Shown: positions 2,142 through 61,719 of the stretch, in pieces | Layout of the letters: each line of letters opens with the position of its first letter | Position numbering within the stretch: position 1 is the stretch's first letter | DNA from: Nitrospinia bacterium | Lineage (GTDB): Bacteria > Nitrospinota > Nitrospinia > Nitrospinales > JAJDAT01 | DNA length: 64,000 nucleotides | Direction: 5' to 3' | NCBI GenBank assembly: GCA_029261715.1 | Contig: JAJDAT010000035.1 | Location: forward strand, 351 to 64,350 | Notes under the pieces: generated by a model | Seen by the model: the letters and a program-made list of their open reading frames with translations, nothing else | What the model was told of the DNA's origin: nothing | The model's database searches: none | Translations under genes and position numbers: made by a program

Positions 2142-3620
2142 TTAAAACCGAAACTTTTCTAAACTTTTTATTTTAGGAGAATCTGTAAGTCCAAAGATTC
2201 CGTCAATTTTTAAATTGTTTCTACGGAGATCTAAATGCTTCAGAGATTTTAAGTTCTCTGATGTAGCGATTGAAGAAAGGCCTTTGTTGGTAATTAAATT
2301 GCCATTGGCCAAGAGTTCTTCAAGATTGGATAAGTTTTCTGATTTTGCTAAAGCTTGAATTCCAGGATCTCCCATAAAAACATCCGCAACCCAAAGGCTT
2401 CTCAACTCTGCAAAGTTCTTAGAATTGGCTAAATGCTTAATTCCTTTTTCTGTTAGATCATTATGGGTAACATTTAAGCTATTTAGATTAGTTAAAGTTT
2501 TGGATTGGGCAATAGCTAAAATTCCTGTCGAAGAAATTTTTGCTCCTTCAAGGTTTAACTTTTTCAAACTTCCAAGACAATTCGATTCTGCTAAAGCAAC
2601 AGCGCCTAAATCTCCAATTTCGTTGCTCATCAGATTTAGGTTTTTAATCCCCTTTGAGTTTTGAGACTCAGCTAAAGATAGAATCCCTCTACAACTGATG
2701 CTGTTATTCCTCAAACTTAACGTTTCTATATTATTCAGCGCTTCAGAACGAGCAAGGGATGCCATGCCTTTATCGCCTAAACCTTTGCCGTTTAGGTTCA
2801 GTGATTTCCCGTCCTCTGATAAGTTTTTTTTCAGAAGAGTTCTAATCCGGAAATCCAAAAGCGCCGTTTCCGTTTTACGTGAAAATTTATTGTCGTAAAA
2901 ATAAAAATCCTCTAAACCTTCTAAATGGGTCGAGCGGGCTAATGCGTTAGAGCCTTCGTCGCGTATGTAATTAGAATTCAGAAATAATTGCTTCAATTGA
3001 TTCATGGAAGCTGCCGACGCGAGAGCTTTGGCGCCTATGTCGCTTATCATATTCCAGCCCAGATTTAGGGAGTGTAATGGCGTGAAGGCCCCTGTCTGAA
3101 TCCAGTTTTTTAATGTGTCGTCGTTAATTTTGTTTCGTTTCAAGTTCAAACGTCTGAGATTTAAATTAGCGGTACCATCTGGATAATGGGCAATACCCTT
3201 TTTGCCGACTAAGTTTAATTCTAATTCCAAAATTTCTAATTGTTTTAGCGATGAAGATTTTATGAGTTCTAAAGCTCCTTCGTCGCTAATTATATTTTTG
3301 ACTAAACTTAGGAAATTTAAAGACGGGAAATTGTTTGAATCTGCGAAGTCCTTACATCCAGAGTTGCCGATTTTATTAGAATCCAGATTCAGCTTTTTTA
3401 AACTTGGAGCTTTTGCGTTTTTGGCGAAAGCGGATAGCCCGGCACTAGTGATATCATTCCAACCTAGATTTAAGCCAACAACATGAGATAGATCTTGCTT
3501 AGACAAAAAAGCAATTCCAGCGTCGCCTATGCGTTCGTAACTGAGATCGATAAAAGAATCTCGATCAAGCCGTTCTTTAATGACGCCAATAATGTATTCG
3601 TCTCGTTCGTTTGCATTCAT
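2142..3620 (-). CDS. Leucine-rich repeat protein, RNI/ribonuclease-inhibitor-like repeats (492 aa)
   Basis: About 28-aa repeats of the form L..L.L..N.IGD.GA.ALA.S..L..L throughout. No signal peptide. An internal segment (LLKKNLSEDGKSLNLNGKGLGDKG) resembles the N-terminus of the neighbouring paralogue. Confidence 0.85.
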   Translation of the reverse strand: MNANERDEYIIGVIKERLDRDSFIDLSYERIGDAGIAFLSKQDLSHVVGLNLGWNDITSAGLSAFAKNAKAPSLKKLNLDSNKIGNSGCKDFADSNNFPSLNFLSLVKNIISDEGALELIKSSSLKQLEILELELNLVGKKGIAHYPDGTANLNLRRLNLKRNKINDDTLKNWIQTGAFTPLHSLNLGWNMISDIGAKALASAASMNQLKQLFLNSNYIRDEGSNALARSTHLEGLEDFYFYDNKFSRKTETALLDFRIRTLLKKNLSEDGKSLNLNGKGLGDKGMASLARSEALNNIETLSLRNNSISCRGILSLAESQNSKGIKNLNLMSNEIGDLGAVALAESNCLGSLKKLNLEGAKISSTGILAIAQSKTLTNLNSLNVTHNDLTEKGIKHLANSKNFAELRSLWVADVFMGDPGIQALAKSENLSNLEELLANGNLITNKGLSSIATSENLKSLKHLDLRRNNLKIDGIFGLTDSPKIKSLEKFRF

Positions 3621-3624
3621 ATAA

Positions 3625-4302
3625 TTAATCGTTCGGAGTCTTTAAGTCGATATCTAAGGTCTCGAGTCTTTGGAGATTTTTTGAATCCTGCATCAATTCG
3701 AGGCCTTTAGGTTCAAGTTTGTTATAAGTAAGATGTAATTTTTTTAAGCTTTTTAATTGTGAAGTTTCTGCGAAAGCCTTCATTCCTGCAAATCCAATTT
3801 TATTAGAATCTAGTCGTAGATCTTTAAGTTTATTAAGGTACGGGGAATTTGCTAGAGCAATTGCTCCCTCGTCGCCAATTTTATTAAAGGATAAATCGAG
3901 AACTTCTAAATTGGAAAGGTTTTCAGAATTTGCTAAAGCTTCAGCGCCTTCAGGTCCGATTTTATTGGTGTAGAGGCTTAAATATTTTAATTTCGTCAAT
4001 TGGGACGATTCTGCTATAGCTTCTGCACCAACATTCCTAATACGGTTATCAAAAAGCCATAATTCTTTTATTGAAGAAAAAAATTCTGAATCGGCCATTT
4101 CCTCAAGGCAAATGTCTTTAATCTGGCAATTATGGAGGAAAAGGATCTCTAATCCTTCCAATTGGATATTTTCAGCAAAATCAATCGCTTCTTTTTCGCC
4201 AATTTTTTTATTAGAAAAGTCGAGCGTTTTGCCGTCTTTGCTCAAACCTTTTTTGATCCAGCGTCGTATGTAGGTGATGTCGTCAGTGGCATTCTTAGCC
4301 AT
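3625..4302 (-). CDS. Leucine-rich repeat protein, RNI-like repeats (225 aa)
   Basis: Same repeat type as the adjacent gene (LDLSFNKIGDEGAIALANSPYLNKLKDLRL...). It lies 4 nt upstream of the 492-aa paralogue, so the two are probably co-transcribed. Confidence 0.85.
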   Translation of the reverse strand: MAKNATDDITYIRRWIKKGLSKDGKTLDFSNKKIGEKEAIDFAENIQLEGLEILFLHNCQIKDICLEEMADSEFFSSIKELWLFDNRIRNVGAEAIAESSQLTKLKYLSLYTNKIGPEGAEALANSENLSNLEVLDLSFNKIGDEGAIALANSPYLNKLKDLRLDSNKIGFAGMKAFAETSQLKSLKKLHLTYNKLEPKGLELMQDSKNLQRLETLDIDLKTPND

Positions 4303-4565: not shown

Positions 4566-5567
4566 TTAATATCGGAATGAAATGCCCACGGTAGCTCCAT
4601 CTCTTTCGCTATCCAAGTCATTTAGGGGAAATACGCTTGAGCCTGTGATTCCACGGACTTCAATATCTCCATCGCTTTCAATTTTCCAGAATTGATAGCC
4701 AGCAGATAGAAAAAGATTAGGTAGAACTTCATACGTCGCGGCGAATTCAAAGTTATACCCTATTCCTGTTCCGTCCATGACAAAGCCAGGTTGGGATAAA
4801 TCTGTGCGTAAATGGTGGATATCCTCGTTGTGCATATCAGAATAGGGGATGAAGACAGCGGAGGCTTCAAGTCCTAATTTTTCCCAGAGAGTTATTTTTC
4901 CTTCCAACCCTAGTTTGATAGAACTCCATTCCACCTTGTTTGATATGACTTTTTCTCCAAGAGACAACGTAGAGCCAGCGGGTAAACAAATTCCCAATAA
5001 TGCGCCGCCCACTGTGCAGGTATCATACGTGATGCCTCTGGCGACATATTCTTCTTCCCAGCGTTGGTAACCCACGAAAGCCCGGAGCATAGACTTTCCT
5101 TTGTAAGAGTCAGTCCAAAGCGTATAACCAACATCCAGATCGAAATACCACAAACCGTCATCGTCAATGTCGCTGAAAGTCCGAGAAGCTAGAAAATCGC
5201 CAGTAGCGGTGGTGGTAAGAAAATCGTCGTCAATTAGTCTTCCATCGTTAAAACTACCAAATCCGACGTTGCCTCTAACAAAAAAACGATTTGGCATATT
5301 AAATTCGGCGGTTAATTCAACCACGTTGCTATCCACGTCCTCATAGGTTAATTCTGATGAAGGATTGCCTAAAAGCGCTGATGAGGAGGAGGCATCATGG
5401 TTCCAGTCGGTTTGTCCTGAACTGAACCAGCCAGAAATCCCGATAGAAAAATTATGTCCCTGATAAAGGTCTTGCTGAGCGTTAGCGATTGAAAAATTAA
5501 AAAGCACAAAAAGTATAGAGATCGCTAATTTTGTAAAATATTTAGAGGAAATTTGGTTACTCATCAA
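4566..5567 (-). CDS. Outer-membrane beta-barrel protein, omptin-like (peptidase A26 candidate)
   Basis: Signal peptide ending ...SIANA/QQ, alternating beta-strand pattern, and a terminal aromatic (...GISFRY). IDDDF and SDMHNEDIHH are spaced like the omptin catalytic D-x-D and D-x-H pairs (OmpT VDQDW / SDNDEHY). Confidence 0.7.
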   Translation of the reverse strand: MMSNQISSKYFTKLAISILFVLFNFSIANAQQDLYQGHNFSIGISGWFSSGQTDWNHDASSSSALLGNPSSELTYEDVDSNVVELTAEFNMPNRFFVRGNVGFGSFNDGRLIDDDFLTTTATGDFLASRTFSDIDDDGLWYFDLDVGYTLWTDSYKGKSMLRAFVGYQRWEEEYVARGITYDTCTVGGALLGICLPAGSTLSLGEKVISNKVEWSSIKLGLEGKITLWEKLGLEASAVFIPYSDMHNEDIHHLRTDLSQPGFVMDGTGIGYNFEFAATYEVLPNLFLSAGYQFWKIESDGDIEVRGITGSSVFPLNDLDSERDGATVGISFRY

Positions 5568-5906
5568 TTAGTCCTTGAAATGTTTTAGCATTTTTACCTT
5601 TTATCGGAACTTAAGCTTCTACGATAAAACATTTTTTCTTGAGATCCAAGCAAAACATTGAAAAAATTAAGCTTACTAGTTAAAGCGAGAAACTCAAGTA
5701 GGTTTGATCTTGTGGAAATAATAAGGTTTTAATAGCGGAAAGATGCTCCTGTATTTCGGTGTTTGGAACTGAAGCTTAAAAAAACTTAAAGAATCCCATA
5801 AGTTGACTTTTGTTTTTCCAATCAATCAAAAACTTTGTTTTTTGGGTTGATAAACTAGCCTTTACGTTTTTATTCAAAAACTCTTAAAAAAAATTAAATG
5901 ACCGAC

Positions 5907-5933
5907 TAAAGTTGGTTCACTTTCTGCCGATAA
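5907..5933 (+). promoter_or_regulatory. Sigma-28 (FliA) promoter, consensus match
   Basis: TAAAGTTG (5907-5914), an 11-nt spacer, and GCCGATAA (5926-5933). It lies about 80 nt upstream of ATG 6012. Confidence 0.7.
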
Positions 5934-6011
5934 CTGGGTTAAGCCCTAGTTTATTCAAAACTCTTTTGTTTTTATAGGGCCCGAAGTCCTTTAAAAAATA
6001 GGGAAAAAAGT

Positions 6012-6440
6012 ATGGCAGAAGTTTCTGGCGGAATTTCAAACAGCATTCCAGTATCTAGAGGGATTGAAGCTCTAAAACGGCAAGAGAATTTAGCTGGGGC
6101 AGGATCTCCAGGACCCTCTTCTGAGCGTAAGCTCTTAGATTCTCAGGATAGTGCAGATCGAGTGCAAATTGGCGTTGAAGCTCGCCAATTAAATGATGAT
6201 CGACAGAGAAACCAAGATCTTCAAGAATCTCAGCGTGAAGGTCAACGCATAGCGGAAAATCAACAGGAACAAACCGCTCAGACTCAAGCCGTATCAAACC
6301 CTGTTGCATTGCCAGAGCAAAACCTGAGCCCATTTCGATCTGAACCTTCCCCAAATCGAGTGACTGAAAAATTTAAACAGTCCGAGTCTAGCCAAAATAG
6401 CAGTTCTCAAAAGGGACTCAATATCGACGTCCAAATTTAA
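6012..6440 (+). CDS. Q/E/S/N-rich disordered protein of the predicted sigma-28 regulon (weak FlgM-like motif)
   Basis: 142 aa of low complexity. DRVQIGVEARQL resembles the D[KR][IV].[IL]S..A..[LM] motif of FlgM anti-sigma-28 factors, but the usual C-terminal helix pattern is not evident. A consensus FliA promoter lies upstream. Confidence 0.5.
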   Translation: MAEVSGGISNSIPVSRGIEALKRQENLAGAGSPGPSSERKLLDSQDSADRVQIGVEARQLNDDRQRNQDLQESQREGQRIAENQQEQTAQTQAVSNPVALPEQNLSPFRSEPSPNRVTEKFKQSESSQNSSSQKGLNIDVQI

Positions 6441-6603
6441 TAGCGTCTATACTTGAAGGCGTGGATTATAGGGAAAAGTAGTTGTGACAATTTTTCTTAT
6501 ATGACAATATAGCTTCAATATGTTCCTTTTTTAAAGGTTCCAGTTCATATTATTTGAACTCTCTTCCCAAAGAATTTAGTTTCCCGCACTTTCTCTATTG
6601 TCC

Positions 6604-8229
6604 ATGAATAAAAAACAGATTTTTCAATTATCTGTAGCGTTAGTTTCTTTATGGCTGTTTTTTGAGTTATTGACTCACACTTCTCCTGCCCCTCTTGTAT
6701 TTAATCGTTATTCGTTAGGATATCTTGTCCTCCTGTGTTTGGTAGTTCCTCTTATTTTGCTAGTCAATTTTTTGGTTTATCGTTATCAATTTAGGGCGAT
6801 AAGGATACTTTTAAAAAATACGATCGCGATATTAGGGATTTTGGTTGTTATAGAAATTTTAGGTCAGTTTTATGCCTGGTTTCATCCCTCATATGATGTT
6901 TTGACTTTAGAGCCGAATAACAAACTTGGTTGGACATTGCCTCCGAATTTGGAGTTTCACTACACGGGAAACGAATGGTATGCCCGGGAATACAGCGCTT
7001 TAAATCGTATTAATTCCCTAGGGTTTCGTGATTTGGAAAGAAGTGAAGAAAAAGAAGAAGGGGTTATTCGTGTGGGGGTTCTTGGAGCGTCCATGATAAC
7101 GAGTAAAGAAAACTCTTTTGAAGATACAGTGCCGCAAATTTTAGAAAAAAAATTAAACGATCATTTCGGTCGAAAAAATAGCAAACGCTTTGAAGTTTTA
7201 AACTTCGGCGGCGACGCCTATGGCATGGGGCAACCATTGATTGTTTATAGCGAGATTGCCCGAAAGTTTAATTTAGATTTTGTCGTTTTTTATGTTGCTG
7301 ATGAACTTCATTTTTGGAAAACCGTTGGATCTGGCGTCTGTTGGGCATTGAATGACGTGGTAGGAGAGGTTCTTAGTCTCGAAGGTGAAAAAAAGAAAGT
7401 TTGCTATGACGTTAGACCTGTATTTTATATTCCAGAAAATTCTTTCGCAGAATTAGACGCTATTTTTTCTTTAAAACTTTTTCAAGACTTTCTTATTCAA
7501 GTGGGAAAGATGAAAAAACAGTCTACTTCTTTTACTTGGGAAGAATATAACCGAGTTATAAAAGAACAAACCGAAGCTATTAGATTAGAAGATGTTCAAA
7601 GGATAGTTCAAAAAATGAAGAGCATAGGGCTTACCTTGTATCCTCCAAAAGACTTTGAACAATTTAAAAAAGATAGAGACGAAGTTATTAAAAACCTTTA
7701 CGCCGGGGGAAAAGTAGCGAAAAGAAAAACCAAGCTTTTCCTTCACACCAAGTTTTCAGAAATAAAAACAGCTTTTAAGGTTGCTCAAAACCAATCTCGC
7801 AAACGCGAGATGGTAACTAAAGGATTGTTGACTAAGTATGCCCCGGATAACCCCAACATGCCGGGATTAGGAAATAAAAATTATCCAAAGTTTGAACATG
7901 TTATATTTGCTAACTTAAAAATATTAAGCCTCTTAAATGACCTGGTGGAAGCCGATAATACTAAATTTGGGATTGCAGATGCCGTTCCTTTTCTGACAGA
8001 CGGGCGCCTGTTAAAATTACCCAGTTTCATTGTTTCAGACATTCTTCAAAAGTTTTCGAAGATTTATAATATTGGTTATATGCCTGTTGGAGAATCTTTG
8101 AACGAGAGAAAAAAAGTGGGGGAGGTATTGCAATGGAAATACGACCCTCACTTAAATAAGAAGGCTAATATGGTTATTGCCGAGGGGATGTTTCAATGGG
8201 TGAAAAAAGAAATTGAAGGAAAAAAATGA
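6604..8229 (+). CDS. Membrane-anchored SGNH/GDSL-like hydrolase family protein (degenerate block I: GAS)
   Basis: Two to three N-terminal TM helices. The ...INSLGFRDLER...IRVGVLGASM... layout parallels the convergent paralogue at 8386-9390. I prefer ATG 6604 to TTG 6598. Confidence 0.65.
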   Translation: MNKKQIFQLSVALVSLWLFFELLTHTSPAPLVFNRYSLGYLVLLCLVVPLILLVNFLVYRYQFRAIRILLKNTIAILGILVVIEILGQFYAWFHPSYDVLTLEPNNKLGWTLPPNLEFHYTGNEWYAREYSALNRINSLGFRDLERSEEKEEGVIRVGVLGASMITSKENSFEDTVPQILEKKLNDHFGRKNSKRFEVLNFGGDAYGMGQPLIVYSEIARKFNLDFVVFYVADELHFWKTVGSGVCWALNDVVGEVLSLEGEKKKVCYDVRPVFYIPENSFAELDAIFSLKLFQDFLIQVGKMKKQSTSFTWEEYNRVIKEQTEAIRLEDVQRIVQKMKSIGLTLYPPKDFEQFKKDRDEVIKNLYAGGKVAKRKTKLFLHTKFSEIKTAFKVAQNQSRKREMVTKGLLTKYAPDNPNMPGLGNKNYPKFEHVIFANLKILSLLNDLVEADNTKFGIADAVPFLTDGRLLKLPSFIVSDILQKFSKIYNIGYMPVGESLNERKKVGEVLQWKYDPHLNKKANMVIAEGMFQWVKKEIEGKK

Positions 8230-8381
8230 TTAAGCTTTTTAAAAAATTTAAAAACTTTTTAGATAAAAAAGAACTTTGGTTTGTGATGCCTTTTTTATTT
8301 GTATTATTGATTCTTGTTATTATCGTAGCCATCGCTCAATCAGGCGGAGATAATTTGCCCTTTATTTATGTGGGTTTTTAA
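8226..8381 (+). CDS. DUF5989-like small membrane protein (51 aa), not in ORF track
   Basis: Its ATG overlaps the upstream stop (ATGA at 8226-8229). Sequence: MIKLFKKFKNFLDKKELWFVMPFLFVLLILVIIVAIAQSGGDNLPFIYVGF. A basic N-terminus, one TM helix and a ...PFIY..F tail fit the family as I recall it. Confidence 0.6.
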   Translation: MIKLFKKFKNFLDKKELWFVMPFLFVLLILVIIVAIAQSGGDNLPFIYVGF

Positions 8382-8385
8382 TTTC

Positions 8386-9390
8386 TTAATTACCTTTGTT
8401 AGATGCTCCCTTAATTAGCTTTGTTGGGTTTTCTTTAAAAAAATTTCTAATTCCATTAGCGATAACGCGGTTCCCAAGAACGTTTGGGTGAGAATCTTCT
8501 CTAGAAACCCAAACCAACTCCTCTCTTTCTACTTCTTTTTTAAAAGTTGGCAATAGATCGATAGTATCTATATTAGATTTTTTTAGGAAACCCAGTATCT
8601 TTTGATGAACGTCTGAAAATGGATAAGTTTTTTTAAAAAAACGTAACTCTGGGCACACCGCTACAATAAAAGGGTTTTTTTGGCTTTTTGCTAGGTCCTT
8701 TATTTTGAGCAAAGAGTTTTTTGAGTTCTCCCAACTTTGGCTTCCGTCTTTATATAAATCTGAGTAATAATTTAGAAATCCCTTTTTCTTATTAAACCGT
8801 GCCCAAATCTTATTGAGTTGGGACCACATGAAGACGGCGAAAATGGATTTCTCCATTAAAACTGAATCTTTGTACTTTGGCGTTGGTTCGGCGTCGTTAA
8901 TGAAATAAAGAAGCATGACCAAATCGGATTTATATTTAATACCCTCATTCTTGTAATATGTATATTCTTGCTCTGAGTTGTAGTTGCCAACTCCCGTATT
9001 AATGACCTCTGTTTGAATCCCATCCATCTCCGCGAAGTCTTTTTCTAAGAGTTTTGAGAAAATAGACTCAAATGGGACTCCCCATCCCAATGTTAAAGAA
9101 TCTCCCAAAAATAACACTCTTCTAATTCCAGGGGTTCTTGGGTAGTCAATTTCTCGATCTCTAAGCCCTTTGGAGTTAATGGCAATATTAGCTCCATAAA
9201 GATCTGCGCTTTTTCCTGGAACATGTTCATGCGACATCCGAGGATCAGAAGCCCTTTGCTTAAGCTTTGTCCAATATCGCCACATGGCAACATCGTAATA
9301 AGGTTGTATTTTTACGAAACCATAGGTCCCGACTTCTAATAAAAGAAAAGTGACGATGAGGTATATAACGACGAATAATATTTTTTTCAC
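8386..9390 (-). CDS. SGNH/GDSL hydrolase family protein, N-terminal membrane anchor
   Basis: Block I is RVLFLGDSLTLGWG, followed by INTGVGNYN (block III-like). A C-terminal ...DSHPN carries the catalytic Asp/His (DxxH-type). Confidence 0.85.
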   Translation of the reverse strand: MKKILFVVIYLIVTFLLLEVGTYGFVKIQPYYDVAMWRYWTKLKQRASDPRMSHEHVPGKSADLYGANIAINSKGLRDREIDYPRTPGIRRVLFLGDSLTLGWGVPFESIFSKLLEKDFAEMDGIQTEVINTGVGNYNSEQEYTYYKNEGIKYKSDLVMLLYFINDAEPTPKYKDSVLMEKSIFAVFMWSQLNKIWARFNKKKGFLNYYSDLYKDGSQSWENSKNSLLKIKDLAKSQKNPFIVAVCPELRFFKKTYPFSDVHQKILGFLKKSNIDTIDLLPTFKKEVEREELVWVSREDSHPNVLGNRVIANGIRNFFKENPTKLIKGASNKGN

Positions 9391-44562: not shown

Positions 44563-45423
44563 TTAAATTTGGTTGTCTAAAAGTTGAAGTACAGATTGAG
44601 GATTCAAATTAGCTTGTCCTATCATAGCTGTAGATGCCTGTACTTGAATTTGATTTTTAGTCAAATTAGCAAAACTTTCTCCGAGGTCGGCGTCAGACAA
44701 GATAGAGTCAGCTCTGGTGTTTTCTTCAACAGAACGATCTAAATTCGATACTGTGCTCGCTAATCTTTCGGCGGCTACAGAGACTCGACTTCTAGTTTCA
44801 ATAACATCATCTAGCAAAATTTCAATCGCTTCGCCAGCGGCAAGCGCTGATTCTTGAGTATTGACAGAAAGTTGATCAAGGCCTGTAGCGGCAGATCTCA
44901 AGTCAGTGACATCTAATATATCGTTGAGGTTGAACCTGTTAGAAGCGCCTCCGTCTAATCCAGTTTGGATGATGTAAGGATCGCTAGCTCCCCTTGATAA
45001 GGAACCGTCTAACAATTTTTGTCCATTGAATTCTGTCGTGTTTGCTATTCGATCCAATTCTTCTCTGAGTTGATTGAATTCCAACTGAACGCTTTCTCGT
45101 TGGGTGTCGTTGATAGTTCCGGATGCCGATTGTTGCGATAACTCTCGAAGTCGAATCAAAATGGAAGAAACTTCTCCAATTGAGCCTTCTACGGTATTTA
45201 CTAGGGCGATGGCATCGCTAGTATTTCTTGAAGCTTGGCGTAAAACAAGGTTGTCGGATCGTAGCGTTTGAGAGATAGAAAAGGACGCGGAATCGTCGCC
45301 AGCTTGTTGGAACCTTTGTCCTGAAGCAACTTGCTTGATAGAATTTTCTAGCCTATCATTATTTGCTGTTAGGTTTCTTTGCGCGTTTTGAGAAACGAGA
45401 TTGGTAAAAATCTGTAATGCCAT
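44563..45423 (-). CDS. fliC: Flagellin, divergent paralogue (286 aa)
   Basis: MALQIFTNLVSQNAQRNL... N-terminus and ...QANLNPQSVLQLL C-terminus. No sigma-28 motif in the 103-nt gap to the upstream flagellin. Confidence 0.9.
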   Translation of the reverse strand: MALQIFTNLVSQNAQRNLTANNDRLENSIKQVASGQRFQQAGDDSASFSISQTLRSDNLVLRQASRNTSDAIALVNTVEGSIGEVSSILIRLRELSQQSASGTINDTQRESVQLEFNQLREELDRIANTTEFNGQKLLDGSLSRGASDPYIIQTGLDGGASNRFNLNDILDVTDLRSAATGLDQLSVNTQESALAAGEAIEILLDDVIETRSRVSVAAERLASTVSNLDRSVEENTRADSILSDADLGESFANLTKNQIQVQASTAMIGQANLNPQSVLQLLDNQI

Positions 45424-45465: not shown

Positions 45466-45479
45466 TAGCTTCCTTGCTA
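45466..45479 (-). promoter_or_regulatory. Leader hairpin with AAGGAA loop (CsrA-type site candidate)
   Basis: On the mRNA it reads UAGC-AAGGAA-GCUA. It lies about 30 nt upstream of the SD CGGAGGA (45432-45438). Confidence 0.4.
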
Positions 45480-45526
45480 AAACAATGGCAATTTCAATAA
45501 ATATTTTATTCAGTTTTATTCTAGAA

Positions 45527-46384
45527 TTACTGTAGTAATTGCAATACTGACTGCGGAATCAAGTTGGCCTGTCCTACCATAGCGGTAGAAGACTGAACCA
45601 AGATTTGGTTTCGAGTTAACAAAGCGACTTCTTCTGCGATATCTGCATCTCGAATAGCTGATTCTGCAGATGTTAGGTTCTCAATAGAAATCGATATGTT
45701 GGATATTGCTCTTACTAGCCGGTTTTGCACGGCGCCGACTTTACCACGGCCCTGCGTAACGACTGTTATTGCGGAATTCATTACATCCAAAGCTGTCAAC
45801 GCGGCGTCGGAGGCAGTAACGCTTAAAACGTCTACTCCTAAACCTGATGAAGTAATTGAACCAAGGTCGATTTGTTGGTTTAAATTAATTCGACTGTCTG
45901 CTGAGGAATCAATTCCGATTTGGATCAATATATGTTGATTGGATGAAATCGAAGATGAAAGCGATCCATCAATCAAACGTTGACCATTAAAGGAAGTCGT
46001 TTGCGCAATACGATCAATCTCGTTTCTTAACGCGGTGAATTCTAATTGGATAGTTTGACGTTCGGTAGAACCAACAGTTCCGGTAGCAGCTTGGGAAGCT
46101 AGCTCTCTCAATCTGATGAGAATCCCGGCTTGTTCGTTGAGCGCTCCTTCCGTTACGTTAATGAGCGCGATTCCGTCGTTTCCGTTTCGAACAGCTTGCC
46201 TTAGAGCTCGGATATCGGATCGTAATGATTCCGAAATTGCCAACCCTGCGGCGTCATCTGCTCCCCGGTTTACCCGGATTCCGGAAGCGATTCTTTCAAC
46301 TGAAGAAGCTAACCGGTCGTTGTTGATCCCCAAAATACGCTGAGCGTTCAGCGAGGGGATATTGTTAAAAATTCTTACTGGCAT
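45527..46384 (-). CDS. fliC: Flagellin (285 aa)
   Basis: MPVRIFNNIPSLNAQR...GADDAAGLAISE... and ...QANLIPQSVLQLLQ. Confidence 0.95.
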   Translation of the reverse strand: MPVRIFNNIPSLNAQRILGINNDRLASSVERIASGIRVNRGADDAAGLAISESLRSDIRALRQAVRNGNDGIALINVTEGALNEQAGILIRLRELASQAATGTVGSTERQTIQLEFTALRNEIDRIAQTTSFNGQRLIDGSLSSSISSNQHILIQIGIDSSADSRINLNQQIDLGSITSSGLGVDVLSVTASDAALTALDVMNSAITVVTQGRGKVGAVQNRLVRAISNISISIENLTSAESAIRDADIAEEVALLTRNQILVQSSTAMVGQANLIPQSVLQLLQ

Positions 46385-46422: not shown

Positions 46423-46434
46423 GGCATCCTTGCC
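46423..46434 (-). promoter_or_regulatory. Leader hairpin GGCA-AGGA-UGCC (CsrA-type site candidate)
   Basis: The mRNA reads ...UUGGCAAGGAUGCC..., close to the CsrA consensus CAAGGAUG. It is nested in a TGTTTT/AAAACA outer stem (46411-40). The SD is CGGAGGA (46393-46399). Confidence 0.45.
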
Positions 46435-46554
46435 AAAACAGTAAAAAAAAAGCTTTAATTCGATGTTACGTTTTAGTCATGCTTGTTTCCTTTATATATA
46501 GAAATTAAGTAGTTAAATTCCGAATATGATAGGTATAAGTGCGTCATAGATTTC

Positions 46555-46859: not shown

Positions 46860-47717
46860 TTATCCTAAGAGCTGTAATACTGATTGCGGGATTAAATTCG
46901 CCTGACCAACCATTGCCGTAGAAGCCTGTACCAGAATTTGGTTTCTGGTGAGTAACGCAACTTCTTCAGCGATGTCGGCGTCTCGGATAGCAGATTCCGC
47001 AGCTTGTAAGTTCTCAGTACTAACCGATATATTCGCGATTGCTCTTACGAGCCGGTTTTGTACGGCACCCACCTTACCACGGCCCTGGGTAACAACCGTT
47101 AAAGCAGCGTTGATCGAGTCGAGAGCGGTCAGCGCTCCTGCGGCTGATGTAACGCTTAGCGTGTCGATGCCAAGAGAAGATACTGTTACGGCGGTCAAAT
47201 CTATTTGTTGATTCAGGTTGATTCGACTATCAGCAGATGAATCCAATCCAATTTGGATCAGAATTTGATTGCTGGATGTTACGGTAGAAGATAGTGAACC
47301 GTCAATCAATCGCTGTCCGTTAAACTCAGTGGTGTTTGCGATACGGTCAATTTCGTTTGAAAGCGCCGTGAATTCGATTTGAATTGTTTGACGTTCTGTG
47401 GATCCAACAGTACCGGTAGAAGCTTGAGAAGAAAGTTCTCTTAGCCGAATCAAAATACCGGCTTGCTCATTCAAGGCTCCCTCCGTAACGTTGATCAATG
47501 CAATTCCGTCATTTCCGTTTCTAACAGCTTGTCTTAAGGCTCGAATGTCAGAACGTAATGATTCCGAAATAGCTAGACCAGCGGCGTCGTCGGCGCCTCT
47601 ATTGATTCTAATACCGGATGCAATTCTTTCTACTGATTGGGCGAGTCTATCGTTGTTGTTACCCAAGATTCTCTGGGCATTAAGCGAGGGAATGTTATTA
47701 AAGATTCGAACTGGCAT
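46860..47717 (-). CDS. fliC: Flagellin (285 aa)
   Basis: Canonical flagellin N- and C-termini. The first 72 aa are identical to those of the 48960-49817 copy. Confidence 0.95.
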   Translation of the reverse strand: MPVRIFNNIPSLNAQRILGNNNDRLAQSVERIASGIRINRGADDAAGLAISESLRSDIRALRQAVRNGNDGIALINVTEGALNEQAGILIRLRELSSQASTGTVGSTERQTIQIEFTALSNEIDRIANTTEFNGQRLIDGSLSSTVTSSNQILIQIGLDSSADSRINLNQQIDLTAVTVSSLGIDTLSVTSAAGALTALDSINAALTVVTQGRGKVGAVQNRLVRAIANISVSTENLQAAESAIRDADIAEEVALLTRNQILVQASTAMVGQANLIPQSVLQLLG

Positions 47718-47750: not shown

Positions 47751-47778
47751 CTTGTTTTAACCTCCTTGCTAAAACAAG
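47751..47778 (-). promoter_or_regulatory. Leader hairpin with GCAAGGAGGU loop (CsrA-type site candidate)
   Basis: 9-bp stem CTTGTTTTA/TAAAACAAG with loop GCAAGGAGGU on the mRNA. A second CAAGGAGGA forms the SD (47724-47732). Confidence 0.5.
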
Positions 47779-47976
47779 TAACCAGGATGCTTCAAATGTA
47801 AAACTACAAATTTTTTTCTAGATAATTCTCCAAGAATTTCTTCGCCAACCAGGAAAAGGCGAAAAAAAATTGTTTTTTAGATCAAAAATCTTAAATTATT
47901 CAGTAATTTTTGCGCCAACCAGGTAAGGAGCTCAAATTACTTTCTAAATTAAAAGACTTTTTGCGTCTTGGAAGCT

Positions 47977-48003
47977 ATATCGGAATTTGGAGAATTTACT
48001 TTA
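47977..48003 (-). promoter_or_regulatory. Sigma-28 promoter: TAAAGTAA-N11-TCCGATAT
   Basis: Reverse complement of 47977-48003; about 260 nt upstream of flagellin ATG 47717. Confidence 0.65.
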
Positions 48004-48112
48004 GCGAGAAGAAAGAGTAGGGGGAGTTCTCCCCTGGGCGGAGCGGATAAAAAAACGTGGAAAACGTTAAAAATAAAGAATTTTACGCTAGATTAAATTT
48101 AATAAAAAAAAA

Positions 48113-48871
48113 TTATAAGATTGATGAATCAGATCCAAATTTAAGCAATTGGACGACTTCTTTTCGAGCTTGCAATGATATATCGAGTTTAGAATCTTGT
48201 CTATTTTGCATCAAATTCTTCCAATAGATTTGTGTCCAAAGGAATTTATCGCTTATAGGACTTAAATTTGCTCGAAATTGCTTTAAAACGTTAGTTTCTT
48301 CGGAAATCTCCTCAATTATTTTGGAAGTTGGACTGAAACTGCTGAAAATGAATCGAGAAAAATTTCTTCCACAATAGCGTTCTGCTAATAATGGATTCAG
48401 AGATAATCCAGCTTTTATATATGATTCTTTTAAATCGCCTATTATGTTTGGCGGTAAAACTACCTCAAGAGACGTTTTATCGAAAATAAACTTTTCTTTT
48501 TCAACTAAAAGGCTAGAGTTAACATCCGTTTGCCTTATCAGTCTTTGGATAGCATTTTGTAAGTGAAGCTTATCTGTTTCATCCATATTAGGGGTTTTAT
48601 GAATGAGTAAAAGTTGACCGAGCAATTGAAGGCGCTTTGATTGTTTAGATAAAATTGCCTCACATTCTTTAATTTCTCTTAGATAGATCTGAGTCGAGCA
48701 TAATTTTTGATCTATAGAAAGATCTTTTATATCCGTTTTCTCGTTTTGCAATTCGCGAAACAAGTTCCCCATCGTTTTGGAGCGAGCGTTGGCGCTCGCT
48801 CTTTGTTTCTTTTCCGGAGAAAAGGGTCTTATAGAACGATCTTCGATTTTTATATGTAATGTTTTACCCAT
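48113..48871 (-). CDS. Unknown protein embedded in the flagellin array; possible highly diverged flagellin-derived protein (252 aa)
   Basis: Intact ORF with balanced composition, 88 nt downstream of a flagellin gene. By-eye collinear matches to the flagellin D1 helix (TDKLHLQNAIQRLIRQTD vs TERQTIQLEFDSLRTEID) and to the C-terminal ..VVQLL. It lacks the flagellin N-terminus. Confidence 0.55.
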   Translation of the reverse strand: MGKTLHIKIEDRSIRPFSPEKKQRASANARSKTMGNLFRELQNEKTDIKDLSIDQKLCSTQIYLREIKECEAILSKQSKRLQLLGQLLLIHKTPNMDETDKLHLQNAIQRLIRQTDVNSSLLVEKEKFIFDKTSLEVVLPPNIIGDLKESYIKAGLSLNPLLAERYCGRNFSRFIFSSFSPTSKIIEEISEETNVLKQFRANLSPISDKFLWTQIYWKNLMQNRQDSKLDISLQARKEVVQLLKFGSDSSIL

Positions 48872-48959: not shown

Positions 48960-49817
48960 TTATCCCAATAATTGCAAAACAGACTGTGGTATTAAGTTTG
49001 CCTGTCCAACCATAGAAGTAGAGGCCGCAACTAGAATTTGGTTTCGCGTTAGCAAAGCGACTTCTTCAGCAATATCGGCGTCTCTAATCGATGATTCGGC
49101 GGCTTGTAAATTTTCGGTTGAAACCGAAAGGTTTGAAATCGCGCGAACTAAACGGTTTTGTACGGCGCCGACTTTTCCTCGGGCTTGGGTTACGGCGGTG
49201 ATAGCGGAGCTTATTGAATCCAAAGCGGTTAAAGCTCCAGCGGCTGATGTTACGCTTAACGACTCTACGCCAAGTCCGGATGTTGTTACCGCAGATAGAT
49301 CAATTTGTTGATTTAAATTAATTCGACTATCTGTGCTGGAATCCAATCCAATTTGAACCAAAATGTGATTTGTGGAAGTAACCGTTGACGCCAAAGATCC
49401 ATCGATTAATTTAGTTCCGTTGAACTCTGTTGTGTTGGCAATACGATCAATTTCGGTTCGTAGGGAATCGAACTCTAATTGAATGGTTTGCCGTTCTGTC
49501 GAGCCGACAGTACCTGTAGATGCTTGCGACGATAGTTCCCTTAAGCGAATAAGAATAGACGCTTGTTCGTTTAGCGCTCCTTCGGCGACATTAATTAAAG
49601 AAATTCCATCGTTACCATTTCGTACGGCTTGACGAAGAGCTCGAATGTCAGAACGTAATGATTCTGAAATTGCTAGTCCAGCGGCGTCGTCTGCGCCTCT
49701 ATTAATTCTAATACCAGAAGCTATTCTTTCAACCGATTGTGCTAACCGGTCGTTGTTGTTTCCCAAGATTCTTTGAGCGTTCAAAGATGGGATGTTGTTG
49801 AAGATTCGAACAGGCAT
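48960..49817 (-). CDS. fliC: Flagellin (285 aa)
   Basis: Canonical flagellin N- and C-termini. Confidence 0.95.
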   Translation of the reverse strand: MPVRIFNNIPSLNAQRILGNNNDRLAQSVERIASGIRINRGADDAAGLAISESLRSDIRALRQAVRNGNDGISLINVAEGALNEQASILIRLRELSSQASTGTVGSTERQTIQLEFDSLRTEIDRIANTTEFNGTKLIDGSLASTVTSTNHILVQIGLDSSTDSRINLNQQIDLSAVTTSGLGVESLSVTSAAGALTALDSISSAITAVTQARGKVGAVQNRLVRAISNLSVSTENLQAAESSIRDADIAEEVALLTRNQILVAASTSMVGQANLIPQSVLQLLG

Positions 49818-49987: not shown

Positions 49988-50014
49988 TTATCGGAGGAAT
50001 AGTTGATAACTTTA
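49988..50014 (-). promoter_or_regulatory. Sigma-28 promoter, consensus: TAAAGTTA-N11-TCCGATAA
   Basis: Reverse complement of 49988-50014; 171 nt upstream of flagellin ATG 49817. Confidence 0.8.
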
Positions 50015-50192
50015 GTTTGGAAAGTTTTTTGAAAAGGAAGATGAGTCTAGTTTTTCTTCTGGGTTGGTTTTAGAAAGCCAATAAAAATTATTTGAGGTAG
50101 CTCTAAAGAGCTTTGTTTGAGGGAACTTCGAAGATTGGCTAAGAACTATTCTGAAAAATATTTAGAGTTAAAAAAACGGAAAATATTTTTAA

Positions 50193-50238: not shown

Positions 50239-51096
50239 TTAGCCCAATAATTGTAAAACCGACTGCGGAAGTAGGTTAGCTTGACCCGCAACTGCGGTAG
50301 AAGAAGCAACCAAGATTTGGTTTCGCGTCAAATTTGCCACTTCTTCAGCAATATCAGCATCCCGGATAGCAGATTCTGCGGCTTGTAAATTTTCCGTTGT
50401 GGTGGCTAAGTTGTTAATAGCTCTTACCAACCTGTTTTGTACCGCACCCACCTTACCCCGAGCCTGAGTAACTAAAGATATAGCCGAGTTTACAGAGTCT
50501 AATGCGGTCAAAGCTCCTGCCGCCGACGTAACGGAGAGAGATTCAATGCTTAAACTGGTTGAAGAAATTGCTTGTAGGCCAATTGTAGTGTTGAAATTGA
50601 TTCGACTGTTACTCGATGCATCCAATCCTATTTGAACAATAAGTTGAGAATCCGTTGTTACTGTCGAAGCAAGCGATCCATCTAAAAGCCGGGTTCCGTT
50701 AAACTCGGATGTGTTTGAGATTCTATCGATTTCGTTTCTTAGTGAATCGAATTCAATTTGAATCGTTTGTCTTTCCGTGGAACCAACCGTTCCGGTTGAA
50801 GCTTGAGACGCCAATTCTCTTAAACGAATAAGAATGGAAGATTGCTCGTTTAAGGAACCCTCTGTCGTATTTAAAAGAGAAATACCGTCATTCGCATTTC
50901 TACTAGCTTGTCGTAACGCTCGGACATCAGATCTTAATGATTCTGAAATAGCCAATCCAGCGGCATCATCCGCGGCCCGATTGATTCTAACCCCAGATGC
51001 GATTCTCTCGATGGACTGTGCTAGACGATCATTGTTGTTACCCAAAATTCTTTGCGCGTTTAATGAGGGGATGTTGTTATTAATTCGGACCGGCAT
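50239..51096 (-). CDS. fliC: Flagellin (285 aa)
   Basis: MPVRINNNIPSLNAQR... and ...QANLLPQSVLQLLG. Confidence 0.95.
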   Translation of the reverse strand: MPVRINNNIPSLNAQRILGNNNDRLAQSIERIASGVRINRAADDAAGLAISESLRSDVRALRQASRNANDGISLLNTTEGSLNEQSSILIRLRELASQASTGTVGSTERQTIQIEFDSLRNEIDRISNTSEFNGTRLLDGSLASTVTTDSQLIVQIGLDASSNSRINFNTTIGLQAISSTSLSIESLSVTSAAGALTALDSVNSAISLVTQARGKVGAVQNRLVRAINNLATTTENLQAAESAIRDADIAEEVANLTRNQILVASSTAVAGQANLLPQSVLQLLG

Positions 51097-51176: not shown

Positions 51177-51650
51177 TCAAATTTTCCGATAAAGCAGATA
51201 GGGGGTAAATACTCCAAAGTTTTGGAGAAATAAAATAAACCCTTCCACTTCGGTATTTCGGCAAAAAAACGTAAACTCTAAATAAGTTTTTCTGAAAAAA
51301 AGCGCTTTTTTATAACTAGAAGCGATTTTTTCTTTAATTTGTAAAAAAACGCTTGAGACTATTGTCATAAAAGCCGTTATGAACGATGAGGGATACTGTG
51401 CTTTATAGATCCAGCGAAACCCAAAAAGCTTCTCCTCAACGGGAATATCGGAAGAAATATCAAGTACTTTAAGATTAAATTTTTGAAGCGAGTTTTTGGT
51501 ATCTATTGAAATTAACTTTAAGAAATTAAACAAAAATTCCGTTAAGACCGATGCCCCAAGCTGTATTTTTCCTTTATAATTCAAAAAGCTAAAGGAAGCC
51601 TTATCGGGTTTTTCGGATAAAAAATTAAAATGTATTAGTTTAATTTTCAT
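51177..51650 (-). CDS. Unknown F/K/L-rich protein (157 aa) between a sigma-28 promoter and a flagellin gene
   Basis: A 157-codon open frame is improbable by chance in such AT-rich sequence. However, there is no convincing SD, the composition is skewed and no family is recognised. Confidence 0.4.
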   Translation of the reverse strand: MKIKLIHFNFLSEKPDKASFSFLNYKGKIQLGASVLTEFLFNFLKLISIDTKNSLQKFNLKVLDISSDIPVEEKLFGFRWIYKAQYPSSFITAFMTIVSSVFLQIKEKIASSYKKALFFRKTYLEFTFFCRNTEVEGFILFLQNFGVFTPYLLYRKI

Positions 51651-51777: not shown

Positions 51778-51804
51778 TTATCGGAAAAAAAGTTAATAAC
51801 TTTA
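51778..51804 (-). promoter_or_regulatory. Sigma-28 promoter, consensus: TAAAGTTA-N11-TCCGATAA
   Basis: Reverse complement of 51778-51804; 128 nt upstream of the ORF 51177-51650 ATG and 682 nt upstream of flagellin ATG 51096. Confidence 0.65.
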
Positions 51805-52106
51805 GTTTCGAAGTTCTTTTTTTTCAAAATTTAAAAAAAACCTTTCTATAAAGGAACTCAGGTTTTTTTCCGATAAACTCGATGAGGTGTTATAGAATCT
51901 TTTTTCAAACATTAAAGTTCTATGAAGCCATATCTTATTTTTCGGGAAAAATCTTGAGGGCTTTAGAAAAAAATTCATCTTTAATGAATCCTAAAAATAA
52001 CTTTTTAAATTTCGCTTATATAAATAAGGTAAAATCCCGTAAAAAGAGATAAGCAGCCTATGGCCTTCCGAATGGAAAATGTTGGCTGCAATTAACCTTA
52101 ACTTTG

Positions 52107-52133
52107 TTATCGGGAAAAATAATTAGAACTTTA
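52107..52133 (-). promoter_or_regulatory. Orphan sigma-28-like motif: TAAAGTTC-N11-CCCGATAA
   Basis: Reverse complement of 52107-52133. No credible ORF lies within the next 300 nt on the minus strand. Confidence 0.5.
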
Positions 52134-52159
52134 GCCCGTTTGCAAAAAAGGCAATAAAA

Positions 52160-57074: not shown

Positions 57075-57833
57075 ATGGAAGCCATTGGCACAAATTCGAT
57101 TAACTCAATAACCCAGAAAACGGCCGCCCAAAATAGTTATGGGCTTTCGACTTCTGCGGATTTGAATGTTAAAACCGAAGAAGGGGATTTAGTGTCGATT
57201 TCGTTTTCTAATGAATTTAACTATTCTGAATCCTCAAGCGCAACTAAATTTGCAAATGGAGATTCTGTGAAAGAGTTTTCTGTTTCTGCATCGGCTGCTT
57301 TTCAATACTCTTTGACTGTGCAAGGTGACCTTAATGAGGAAGAATTAGCCGCAATTGAAAAGTTGGCGCAAAGCGTTTCTCCTTTAGCAGAAAGTTTTTT
57401 TAGTCAATCGGGTTTTGATGCAGGACAAGCCGCTTCGGTATTAGCGGGATCTTTAGGAACTTTGACGGATATCGAGTTGAGTTTGGAAAGAACTGAAACC
57501 GCTTCGGCAGTTAGAGAATATTTTGAAAATGGAAATACTGAAGAATTGAATCAATTAGCTAATGATATAGCTGGAGAATTTCCAGAAGAACAAATTCCAA
57601 AAGTAAGAGATTTGGCTGGTTTGGTTCAATCCGTTTTGGATGCAGTCTTTAACGACAACGAAGAAGAATTTCCAGAAGACAGTTTTTTGAAAAATCTAGA
57701 AGACTTTAAAAGTCTATTAGCGAATCAATTGGTACAAGCTCTTGGAAGCCAAGTAGAAGAAACGGCTGGGACAGAAGAAACACCTGAGACGCAACCTGAA
57801 ACTGTGGGAAGACTGGAGCCGGTTGTGGCTTAA
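57075..57833 (+). CDS. Acidic protein of unknown function (252 aa)
   Basis: ATG-initiated after GAGGAAAA and followed by a strong terminator. E/D/S-rich, no TM helix, no signal peptide. Confidence 0.6.
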   Translation: MEAIGTNSINSITQKTAAQNSYGLSTSADLNVKTEEGDLVSISFSNEFNYSESSSATKFANGDSVKEFSVSASAAFQYSLTVQGDLNEEELAAIEKLAQSVSPLAESFFSQSGFDAGQAASVLAGSLGTLTDIELSLERTETASAVREYFENGNTEELNQLANDIAGEFPEEQIPKVRDLAGLVQSVLDAVFNDNEEEFPEDSFLKNLEDFKSLLANQLVQALGSQVEETAGTEETPETQPETVGRLEPVVA

Positions 57834-60609: not shown

Positions 60610-61719
60610 TTATAGGCGCATAGGCATTACGAGACTAAGGAATCCTGGGTCTTTTTCTGTCGTAATTAAACAGGAATGATCTTTATCTTTCAGCTTAAGA
60701 ACCACATTTTCATATTCGATAACGTTTAAGATATCTAAAACATAACGACCGTTTAAGCCTATAGCGACATCGTCGCCTTTATAGTCAATGGCAATCTCTT
60801 CTTTTGCCGCGCCTTGGTCTGCTGTATCAGCGTTCAATGATAATTGGCTTGATTTCACTTCTAGACGAACCATTTTAGAATGCTCATCTGCAAGTAGAAC
60901 TACCCGTTTCATTGCGTGACTTAAATCCTCTTTATTTATTGAAATTAGGAGTTCGTTTTCTTTTGGAATGACTTGCCTGTAATTAGGGAACTTTCCATCC
61001 ACCGCACGTGAAACAATCGCCTGCTTTCCTTGAGTAAAAGCTAAAAAGTTGTCTTTTATTGAAAAAGAAATAGTTTGTTCTTCATCTTCAATAAATTTTG
61101 CCAATTCATTCACTAGTTTTCTTGGTAATAAATGTTCGGACTTTTCTTCTTCGCTATTTGTTCCTTCAGGCAAGGGTCTTTGAATCGATACAAGACGATG
61201 GCCGTCGGTACCCACCATAGAACAATTTCCTTTTTCTAATTCAAGCAATAATCCGCTAATTCCTTTCCTCGTTTCGTCGGTAGATACGGCAAAAGATGTC
61301 TTGCGAATCATTTCTTTTAAAGCGCCTGCGTTAAAATCGATGAGGCTATCTTCTCCATATTCAGGGAAAACTGGAAATTCTTCGGCGGCTAATCCTGGCA
61401 GTCGAAAAACAGACTTTTGGCATTTAATGGTGACCCAGTTATTTTCTTCTTGGGTGATGTGAATTTCACTATCGGGAAGTTCTCTTACAATGTCGTGTAG
61501 TTTTTTAGCGTTTAAGACCGCTTGACCTTCGGCAACTACATTCGCTGAATAATATCCGCGAAAAGCGACTTCCAGATCCGTCGCTTGAATAAAAACACCA
61601 TCCTGGTCTGTTGAAATTAATAAATAAGATAAAATGGGCATAGCCCCTTTAGCTTCTACAACTCCTTGTACTTTTTGGACTCCAGCCAATAAATTGGCTT
61701 TGCCGATTCTAATTTCCAT
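60610..61719 (-). CDS. dnaN: DNA polymerase III beta sliding clamp
   Basis: 369 aa of three-domain length. N-terminus MEIRIGKANLL...VQKVQGVV and C-terminus ...LVMPMRL. Confidence 0.9.
   Translation of the reverse strand: MEIRIGKANLLAGVQKVQGVVEAKGAMPILSYLLISTDQDGVFIQATDLEVAFRGYYSANVVAEGQAVLNAKKLHDIVRELPDSEIHITQEENNWVTIKCQKSVFRLPGLAAEEFPVFPEYGEDSLIDFNAGALKEMIRKTSFAVSTDETRKGISGLLLELEKGNCSMVGTDGHRLVSIQRPLPEGTNSEEEKSEHLLPRKLVNELAKFIEDEEQTISFSIKDNFLAFTQGKQAIVSRAVDGKFPNYRQVIPKENELLISINKEDLSHAMKRVVLLADEHSKMVRLEVKSSQLSLNADTADQGAAKEEIAIDYKGDDVAIGLNGRYVLDILNVIEYENVVLKLKDKDHSCLITTEKDPGFLSLVMPMRL

Follow-up and report, generated by a model that had tools for sequence, protein, structure and literature searches.

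Sigma-28 (FliA) regulons include small disordered proteins such as the checkpoint protein FlgM, whose gene typically has a class 3 promoter, and several proteins that are exported through the flagellum. The YjfB-type 'putative motility protein' (PF14070) and FlaG (PF03646) are small, hydrophilic, Q-rich proteins of sigma-D/sigma-28 regulons, and both have a C-terminus of the form G-h-x-h-D-x-x-h. FspA of Campylobacter jejuni is sigma-28 dependent, and Escherichia coli FlxA is not known to have a role in motility. The Nitrospinota are a deep-branching and ecologically important phylum and the main marine nitrite oxidisers. Here we describe a gene in a 64,000-nucleotide (nt) stretch of DNA from an uncultured member of this phylum (contig JAJDAT010000035.1; the whole stretch is referred to as the window). 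The gene, at positions 6012-6440 of the forward (+) strand, follows a sigma-28-type promoter and encodes an orphan protein of 142 amino acids (aa) whose C-terminus, KGLNIDVQI, resembles those of the YjfB-type proteins and FlaG. It is a well-supported case of a lineage-restricted gene. We put at about even chances that it is a new member of the sigma-28 regulon, whose product would either be exported late through the flagellum or act in the cytoplasm as a regulator or adaptor.

FlgM, FlxA and FspA are analogues of the orphan protein and not its relatives. Like FlgM, the orphan is small, acidic and, as predicted, intrinsically disordered. Both lack Cys, His, Trp and Tyr (for FlgM, in the E. coli protein), and the orphan gene too has a sigma-28 (class 3) promoter. 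A helix able to fold on binding is plausible in the orphan, and a short conserved segment is loosely like the 'xVxLS..A' of FlgM and the Bacillus subtilis sequence DKIEISSQAKEM. It differs in having Gly where FlgM has Ser, and in lacking RVxxLKxAIxxGxYxVDxxxIA, the C-terminal sigma-binding core of FlgM. FlxA of E. coli is FliA-dependent and is encoded by a stand-alone small gene outside the flagellar clusters (PMC4183435). The orphan gene resembles flxA in these respects, its own dependence on FliA being predicted, and the C-termini of the two proteins are both of the G-x-IDhxh type (GTIDIYV in FlxA, GLNIDVQI in the orphan), whereas flxA lies in the Qin prophage and the orphan gene keeps a stable place in the chromosome beside the nuo operon. 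C. jejuni secretes FspA (Cj0859c), a small acidic protein that by coincidence also has 142 aa, through its flagellum (PMC3145565); it was compared with the orphan by description. FspA is a protein of a host-associated pathogen, and in this it differs from the orphan, but it provides an example of a lineage-restricted, non-structural flagellar export substrate, and by analogy we propose that the orphan may be secreted.

Sigma-28-type promoter

The promoter block CTAAAGTTGGTTCACTTTCTGCCGATAAC (5906-5934, +) is unique in the window as an exact sequence. It is made up of a -35 box, TAAAGTTG (5907-5914), an 11-nt spacer, GTTCACTTTCT, and a -10 box, GCCGATAA (5926-5933), all on the + strand. Fifteen of the 16 box positions agree with the consensus (-35 TAAAGTTT and -10 GCCGATAA, 11 nt apart), and 78 nt separate the end of the -10 box from the ATG at 6012. 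The combination TAAAGTTG-N11-GCCGATAA occurs once in the window and was absent from 100 dinucleotide-preserving shuffles. The site at 5907-5933 is also the best sigma-28 match in the window, with GCCGATAAC here compared to T/CCCGATAAC at the sites in the flagellin region. A preliminary description of this DNA, made from the sequence alone, had placed a consensus FliA promoter, the best match in the window, about 80 nt before ATG 6012, and this is borne out.

The same element is found before flagellin genes. A scan of the window for CTAAAGT-N14-CCGATA, with up to one mismatch allowed, gave six matches where 0.08 were expected, five of them in the flagellin array and the sixth at 5906-5934. The shared 29-nt layout is CTAAAGT(T)-N11-nnCCGATA(AC), and because it recurs in the array the organism appears to use this element before its flagellin genes. 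The boxes at 5907-5933 are almost identical to those of the experimentally mapped FliA promoter of E. coli tar, TAAAGTTT-N11-GCCGATAAC (PMC4183435).

Orthologous loci were compared from four Nitrospinota metagenome-assembled genomes (MAGs; loci L001-L004) and one JGI metagenome contig (L007). Over six orthologous loci, 21 of the 29 positions of the promoter block are invariant, and sequence farther upstream cannot be aligned. The synonymous divergence (dS) of 0.8-1.6 in the adjacent gene means that synonymous sites are near saturation, yet the promoter box has been kept. In L001-L003 the sole match to the pattern in each 10-kb locus sits just upstream of the orthologue. The promoter is thus above chance on three independent grounds, namely its recurrence in the flagellin array, its conservation before orthologues and its likeness to mapped FliA promoters of E. 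coli, and its assignment to the FliA (sigma-28) type is supported by these sequence comparisons.

Coding sequence and predicted protein

Substitutions between orthologues fall mostly at third codon positions of the + frame (for example 11/18/66 by codon position), and the ratio of nonsynonymous to synonymous divergence (dN/dS, Nei-Gojobori) in this frame is 0.07-0.18 at dS 0.8-1.6. Together with the clusters of orthologues, this identifies the open reading frame (ORF) at 6012-6440 (+; 142 aa plus stop) as a real gene under strong purifying selection. The preliminary description had left room for an antisense ORF at 6055-6354 (- strand, 99 aa) to be the expressed gene instead. That frame is open for 99 codons in the window, but its open length ranges from 71 to 105 codons among the orthologues, for which reason we regard it as the usual shadow frame. 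The substitutions track the third codon position of the + frame, in which dN/dS is about 0.1, and the - frame has neither promoter nor ribosome-binding-site evidence. It is extremely improbable that the antisense ORF is a real gene, and the suggestion is effectively refuted.

One orthologue, at 2851-3290 of L004 (from MAG CAWVUN010000176), is disrupted twice: codon 50 reads TGA in place of CGA, and 2 bp are deleted a little farther on. An 89-aa remnant has been called as a protein (P0010). Its promoter box is degraded too, with two changes (CTAAAAT..., GCCGATACC). This copy may be a pseudogene or may result from an error of assembly; it fits a promoter and an ORF that are decaying together as one unit.

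The 142-aa product is 44% Q, E, S and N, contains no C, H, W or Y, and is very hydrophilic, with a grand average of hydropathy of -1.06 and a net charge of -4. Its highest 19-residue hydropathy is 0.34, a value that points to the absence of both a transmembrane helix and a Sec-type signal. An AlphaFold2 model built from a shallow alignment has a mean predicted local distance difference test score (pLDDT) of 61, with 10-residue block means of 79-89 over residues 51-90 and low confidence elsewhere. The product is therefore predicted to be largely disordered apart from one long central helix. The low complexity and the lack of a transmembrane helix or signal peptide had been noted in the preliminary description, and both hold.

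Conservation is concentrated in three parts of the protein. The N-terminal segment of residues 1-34 (MAEVSGGISNNIPVSRGIEALKRQENLAGAESPG; 6012-6113, +) has near-invariant columns and is predicted to be mostly disordered (pLDDT about 46-52). Residues 37-95 (6120-6296, +) form the predicted long alpha-helix, which is Q/E/R-rich; within it the family alignment shows a conserved DRVQIGxEARxL at residues 49-60 (6156-6191, +), which in the window protein reads DRVQIGVEARQL. The C-terminal segment, residues 100-142 (6309-6437, +; pLDDT about 47-55), contains LPxQNLSPFRSEPS, RVTEKF and the invariant C-terminus QKGLNIDVQI. Such a pattern of conservation is typical of a disordered protein that acts via short linear motifs.

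A word-indexed search of 5.8 billion proteins returned ten clusters of the family, nine of them of 142 aa at 73-86% identity and the tenth the truncated L004-type product. A HMMER profile search of 1.84 billion representative proteins returned nothing beyond the family's own 50% cluster. Searches of Pfam and NCBIfam with the protein, ten members and three fragments gave only noise (MAP_0585, E=0.46; motB, E=0.18, in one member), as did the family profile against PDB sequences (a single match, E=1.9), and Foldseek found no match in the PDB to the AlphaFold2 model. As judged from these searches, this is an orphan family confined to a narrow clade of uncultured marine Nitrospinota. Literature searches on Nitrospina flagella returned no titles or abstracts that seemed relevant to the orphan gene. 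We also considered whether the N-terminus (ISNNIP) mimics that of flagellin (IFNNIP), and dropped the idea because the resemblance is not significant in local alignment against shuffles (p 0.2-0.9, with about 0.2-0.3 for the shared NNIP).

Comparison with FlgM, FlxA, YjfB and FlaG

In the preliminary description the product was taken to be either an atypical FlgM or an undescribed class 3 export substrate, on the basis of a FlgM-like motif, D-[KR]-[IV]-x-[IL]-S-x-x-A-[KR]-x-[LM]. The FlgM part of this proposal was not upheld. PF04316 had no match at E<=10 in the ten members and three fragments, nor had any other Pfam family. Negatives of this kind weigh little for a family as divergent as FlgM; a phmmer search of the PDB with E. 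coli FlgM itself recovered no FlgM chain. In hmmscan the E-values carry a penalty for 24,736 models and weak matches are filtered out, and a targeted test was therefore made with a custom FlgM hidden Markov model (HMM). The sequences behind the model were those of E. coli, Salmonella, Citrobacter and Buttiauxella, those of Ralstonia and Burkholderia from plasmid records, and a B. subtilis sequence entered by hand, and the model was run with filters off and 2000 shuffles. The family scored from -2.2 to +2.9 bits, within the distribution of the shuffles. The window protein scored -2.2 bits, which 1946 of the 2000 shuffles equalled or exceeded. Alignment to E. coli FlgM with hhalign gave a probability of 0.1%.

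The motif itself was examined in an alignment of eight FlgM sequences, seven retrieved and the B. subtilis sequence entered by hand. Only h-x-[LI]-S of the cited motif is conserved among them. The orphan has the segment in question at residues 49-60, as had been seen, but reads V-Q-I-G, with Gly at the position where the pattern demands Ser, in all full-length members. All eight share the C-terminal sigma-28-binding core of FlgM, RVEALKxAIxxGxLKMDxxKIAD ([KR]Vxx[IL]KxAIxxGx[YL]x[VM]Dxxx[IV]A). It has no counterpart in the orphan, which ends in RVTEKFKQSE...QKGLNIDVQI. At 142 aa the orphan is also some 40-45 residues longer than four reference FlgM proteins from three genera (97-106 aa). The absence of the C-terminal sigma-binding helices of FlgM and the unusual length had both been recognised in the preliminary description. 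Reference loci from E. coli and Ralstonia have the gene order flgA-flgM-flgN, whereas the orphan gene is unlinked to flgN, flgA or flgK. With the Pfam, custom HMM, hhalign, motif and core tests all negative, the orphan does not appear to belong to the FlgM family.

The orphan and FlxA have a similar layout, with an S/T/N(/G)-rich N-terminus, a Q/E-rich helix and a charged/hydrophilic tail ahead of the C-termini compared above. There is no sequence relationship between the two and no match to PF14282. A custom FlxA HMM, run with filters off, gave -0.9 bits, a score at least equalled by 1735 of the 1993 shuffles reported (2000 made), the profile being of low diversity and drawn from Enterobacteriaceae only; hhalign against FlxA gave a probability of 0.2%. 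Both custom profiles are shallow, as database searches yielded almost only Enterobacteriaceae. Neither PF14070 nor PF03646 matched the whole protein or its C-terminal 39 residues at E<=10, in searches where HMMER's filtering may mask any match of E greater than about 0.1. On these comparisons the orphan is not a member of the FlgM, FlxA, YjfB or FlaG families.

Proposed role and alternative explanations

The gene is preceded by a near-perfect and conserved sigma-28 promoter, and for this reason its product is probably made late in flagellum assembly. A class 3 flagellar-regulon product of an undescribed kind stands as a hypothesis because the FliA-type promoter is shared with the flagellins and the protein is real and constrained. 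These are the parts of the preliminary description that held overall, the identity with FlgM being the part that did not. We propose that transcription of the gene would accompany that of the late (class 3) flagellar genes, at the stage when completion of the hook-basal body releases FliA, and that the protein would act by way of the short motifs conserved at its two ends, together with a helix that becomes folded when a partner is bound. Either the flagellar type III export apparatus would take the protein as a late substrate, or the protein would stay in the cytoplasm and serve late flagellar assembly as a regulator or adaptor. We lean towards an exported substrate, since the protein is unfolded, acidic, free of C, H, W and Y and, as predicted, co-expressed with flagellin, features in which FlgM and FspA are similar. 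The likelihood of flagellar type III export seems to us somewhat short of even, and includes as a minor share an anti-sigma analogue, which is by itself unlikely. The likelihoods given for these and the following readings were assigned separately and do not form a single partition.

Several points weigh against a flagellar role of this kind. A good FliA motif alone is not proof of regulation, because many of the sites that FliA binds in E. coli yield no measurable transcription; FliA chromatin immunoprecipitation sequencing found 35 novel sites, mostly intragenic, many without a detectable FliA-dependent change in expression (PMC4183435). The gene has no flagellar neighbours and lies between genes for Pom-like (Protochlamydia outer-membrane protein family) proteins and the nuo operon. 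The window has no flagellar genes besides the flagellins, which are 38 kb away, the long distance having been pointed out in the preliminary description. The L004 lineage appears to have lost the gene, which suggests that it is dispensable. No sequence feature specifically marks an export signal. Flagellar export signals tend to be poorly conserved, and for such a signal the high conservation of the N-terminal 34 residues would be unusual.

The isolated position and the apparent pseudogene of L004 would both suit a passenger of the sigma-28 regulon, comparable to E. coli flxA. Such a gene would be co-expressed with the late flagellar genes and serve a cytoplasmic, motility-coupled process, its product being neither exported nor required for assembly or motility. 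The layout shared with FlxA agrees with this, but the failure of every sequence test for a relationship with FlxA does not, and a dN/dS of about 0.1 over a dS of about 1 speaks for a function of real importance, in most lineages at least; we consider a passenger possible and, on balance, rather unlikely. A highly divergent or non-homologous anti-sigma-28 factor, in effect a functional FlgM, would bind FliA via the central helix and DRVQIGxEARxL and would be exported through the finished hook-basal body, thereby freeing FliA. The promoter, the composition and the loose resemblance to DKIEISSQAKEM speak for such a factor. Given the negative profile searches, the missing core, the Gly in place of Ser, the greater length and the lack of linkage to flgA, flgN or flgK, we judge it improbable. 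The sigma-28-like box might also not be an operative promoter at all, the gene being a housekeeping gene unrelated to flagella and the box being kept for another reason or acting as a weak or inactive FliA site. The silent FliA-bound sites of E. coli provide a precedent, a weak sigma-70-like match lies upstream (5639-5667), and conservation extends to the spacer and to the 12 nt that follow the -10 box, perhaps a sign that some other factor binds there. The box nevertheless agrees with the consensus at 15 of 16 positions, is intergenic and correctly spaced and oriented at a typical distance from the start codon, is conserved in orthologues, and has a layout found elsewhere in the window only in the flagellin array, while the sigma-70-like match, at 9 of 12 positions, is no better than in shuffles (five found compared to 2.7 +/- 1.9). 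An inoperative box is accordingly quite improbable.

Most new proteins of this kind are invisible to homology searches, and the orphan was flagged by its promoter only. If it is a true FliA partner or an export substrate, flagellar late-gene control would have been rebuilt with unrelated proteins in the Nitrospinota. We see a small chance that the clade uses a secreted checkpoint factor unrelated to FlgM, or that the orphan is a new export substrate whose terminal motifs constitute a new mode of recognition. If it is instead a flxA-like passenger, it would be nothing more unusual than a lineage-specific hypothetical protein whose regulatory signal is well defined. Either way, the window supplies a clean, internally validated sigma-28 consensus for the Nitrospinota, CTAAAGTT-N11-nnCCGATAAC, which could be used for mapping the regulon in uncultured genomes.

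Leader and transcript ends

Alignments of the orthologous loci define a predicted 5' leader of about 70 nt (5935-6011, +). The sequence directly after the -10 box, TGGGTTAAGCCC (5935-5946), is conserved, and from the usual distance between the -10 box and +1 transcription would start near 5940-5942. A Shine-Dalgarno-like AGGGA (6000-6004) lies 7 nt before the ATG, and both this element and the start codon are conserved in the orthologues. A conserved RNA structure, or a hairpin that sequesters the Shine-Dalgarno element, was considered for the leader and rejected: RNAalifold gave four pairs without covariation, and the single-sequence fold had a z of -0.94. The leader had no match in Rfam. No terminator was recognised beyond the gene in a pattern scan, and the DNA downstream lacks conservation. 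The gene looks monocistronic.

Flagellin array

Five tandem flagellin paralogues lie on the - strand (44563-45423, 45527-46384, 46860-47717, 48960-49817 and 50239-51096). A 252-aa ORF (48113-48871) breaks up the array and a 157-aa ORF (51177-51650) comes before it, neither with a Pfam match. The sigma-28-type boxes of the array are all on the - strand, in the leaders of the paralogues. One, at 47978-48004, is about 260 nt upstream of the flagellin gene 46860-47717, and another, CTAAAGTTATCAACTATTCCTCCGATA at 49989-50015, is about 170 nt upstream of the gene 48960-49817. A third (51446-51472) falls inside the 157-aa ORF, and a fourth, CTAAAGTTATTAACTTTTTTTCCGATA (51779-51805), is upstream of both that ORF and the flagellin gene 50239-51096. 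The head of the array has a second, more distal box at 52108-52134. The approximately 300 nt between the tandem boxes (51806-52107, -) contain no convincing ORF; they could give rise to a small RNA dependent on FliA, encode a very small protein or reflect duplication of the promoter.

At about 130-350 nt, the leaders of the flagellin genes are long. Short hairpins with GGA in the loop, such as GTTTTAGCAAGGAGGTTAAAAC, occur in these 5' leaders (- strand; about 47755-47776, 45471-45481 and about 46430-46445), where TTTAGCAAGGA is found twice compared to 0.14 expected. The hairpins look like CsrA-type binding sites and would suggest translational control of flagellin in the manner of CsrA/FliW; neither csrA nor fliW was found in the window. 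The leader of the flagellin gene 46860-47717 also has two copies of CCTGGTTGGCG 70 nt apart (47843-47853 and 47913-47923, -), a count that is not significant alone (2 compared to 0.46 expected, and reached by 9 of 100 shuffles).

Genomic neighbourhood

The neighbours of the orphan gene in the window are Pom-like outer-membrane protein genes, leucine-rich-repeat proteins and nuoA-N. In every locus one or two Pom-like genes, transcribed divergently, come before the orphan gene and the nuo operon comes after it, and the genes inserted between the orphan gene and the operon differ from genome to genome. Directly upstream of it in the window, 2142-4302 and 4566-5567 (both -) encode a Pom-like beta-barrel protein and two leucine-rich-repeat proteins, of 492 and 225 aa, and the orthologous loci have kept these genes. 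A spot of variable insertion separates the orphan gene from nuoA (6598-9390 in the window and 10581-14618 in L007). It is empty in L001 and L003. In the window and L002 it contains a 543-aa membrane protein without a Pfam match, to which the window adds a GDSL-like hydrolase, and in L007 it contains a 371-aa ORF, a 726-aa ORF and a nucleotidyltransferase pair (PF01909/PF08780).

Two other genes of the window may be mentioned. A 252-aa acidic, low-complexity protein (MEAIGTNSINSITQKTAAQNS...) encoded at 57075-57833 (+) has no Pfam match, and no sigma-28 box was seen before its gene; it is possibly another disordered orphan. The ORF at 60610-61719 (-) looks, by eye from the sequence, like dnaN, encoding the beta sliding clamp, and for this reason the window may be close to the chromosomal replication origin.

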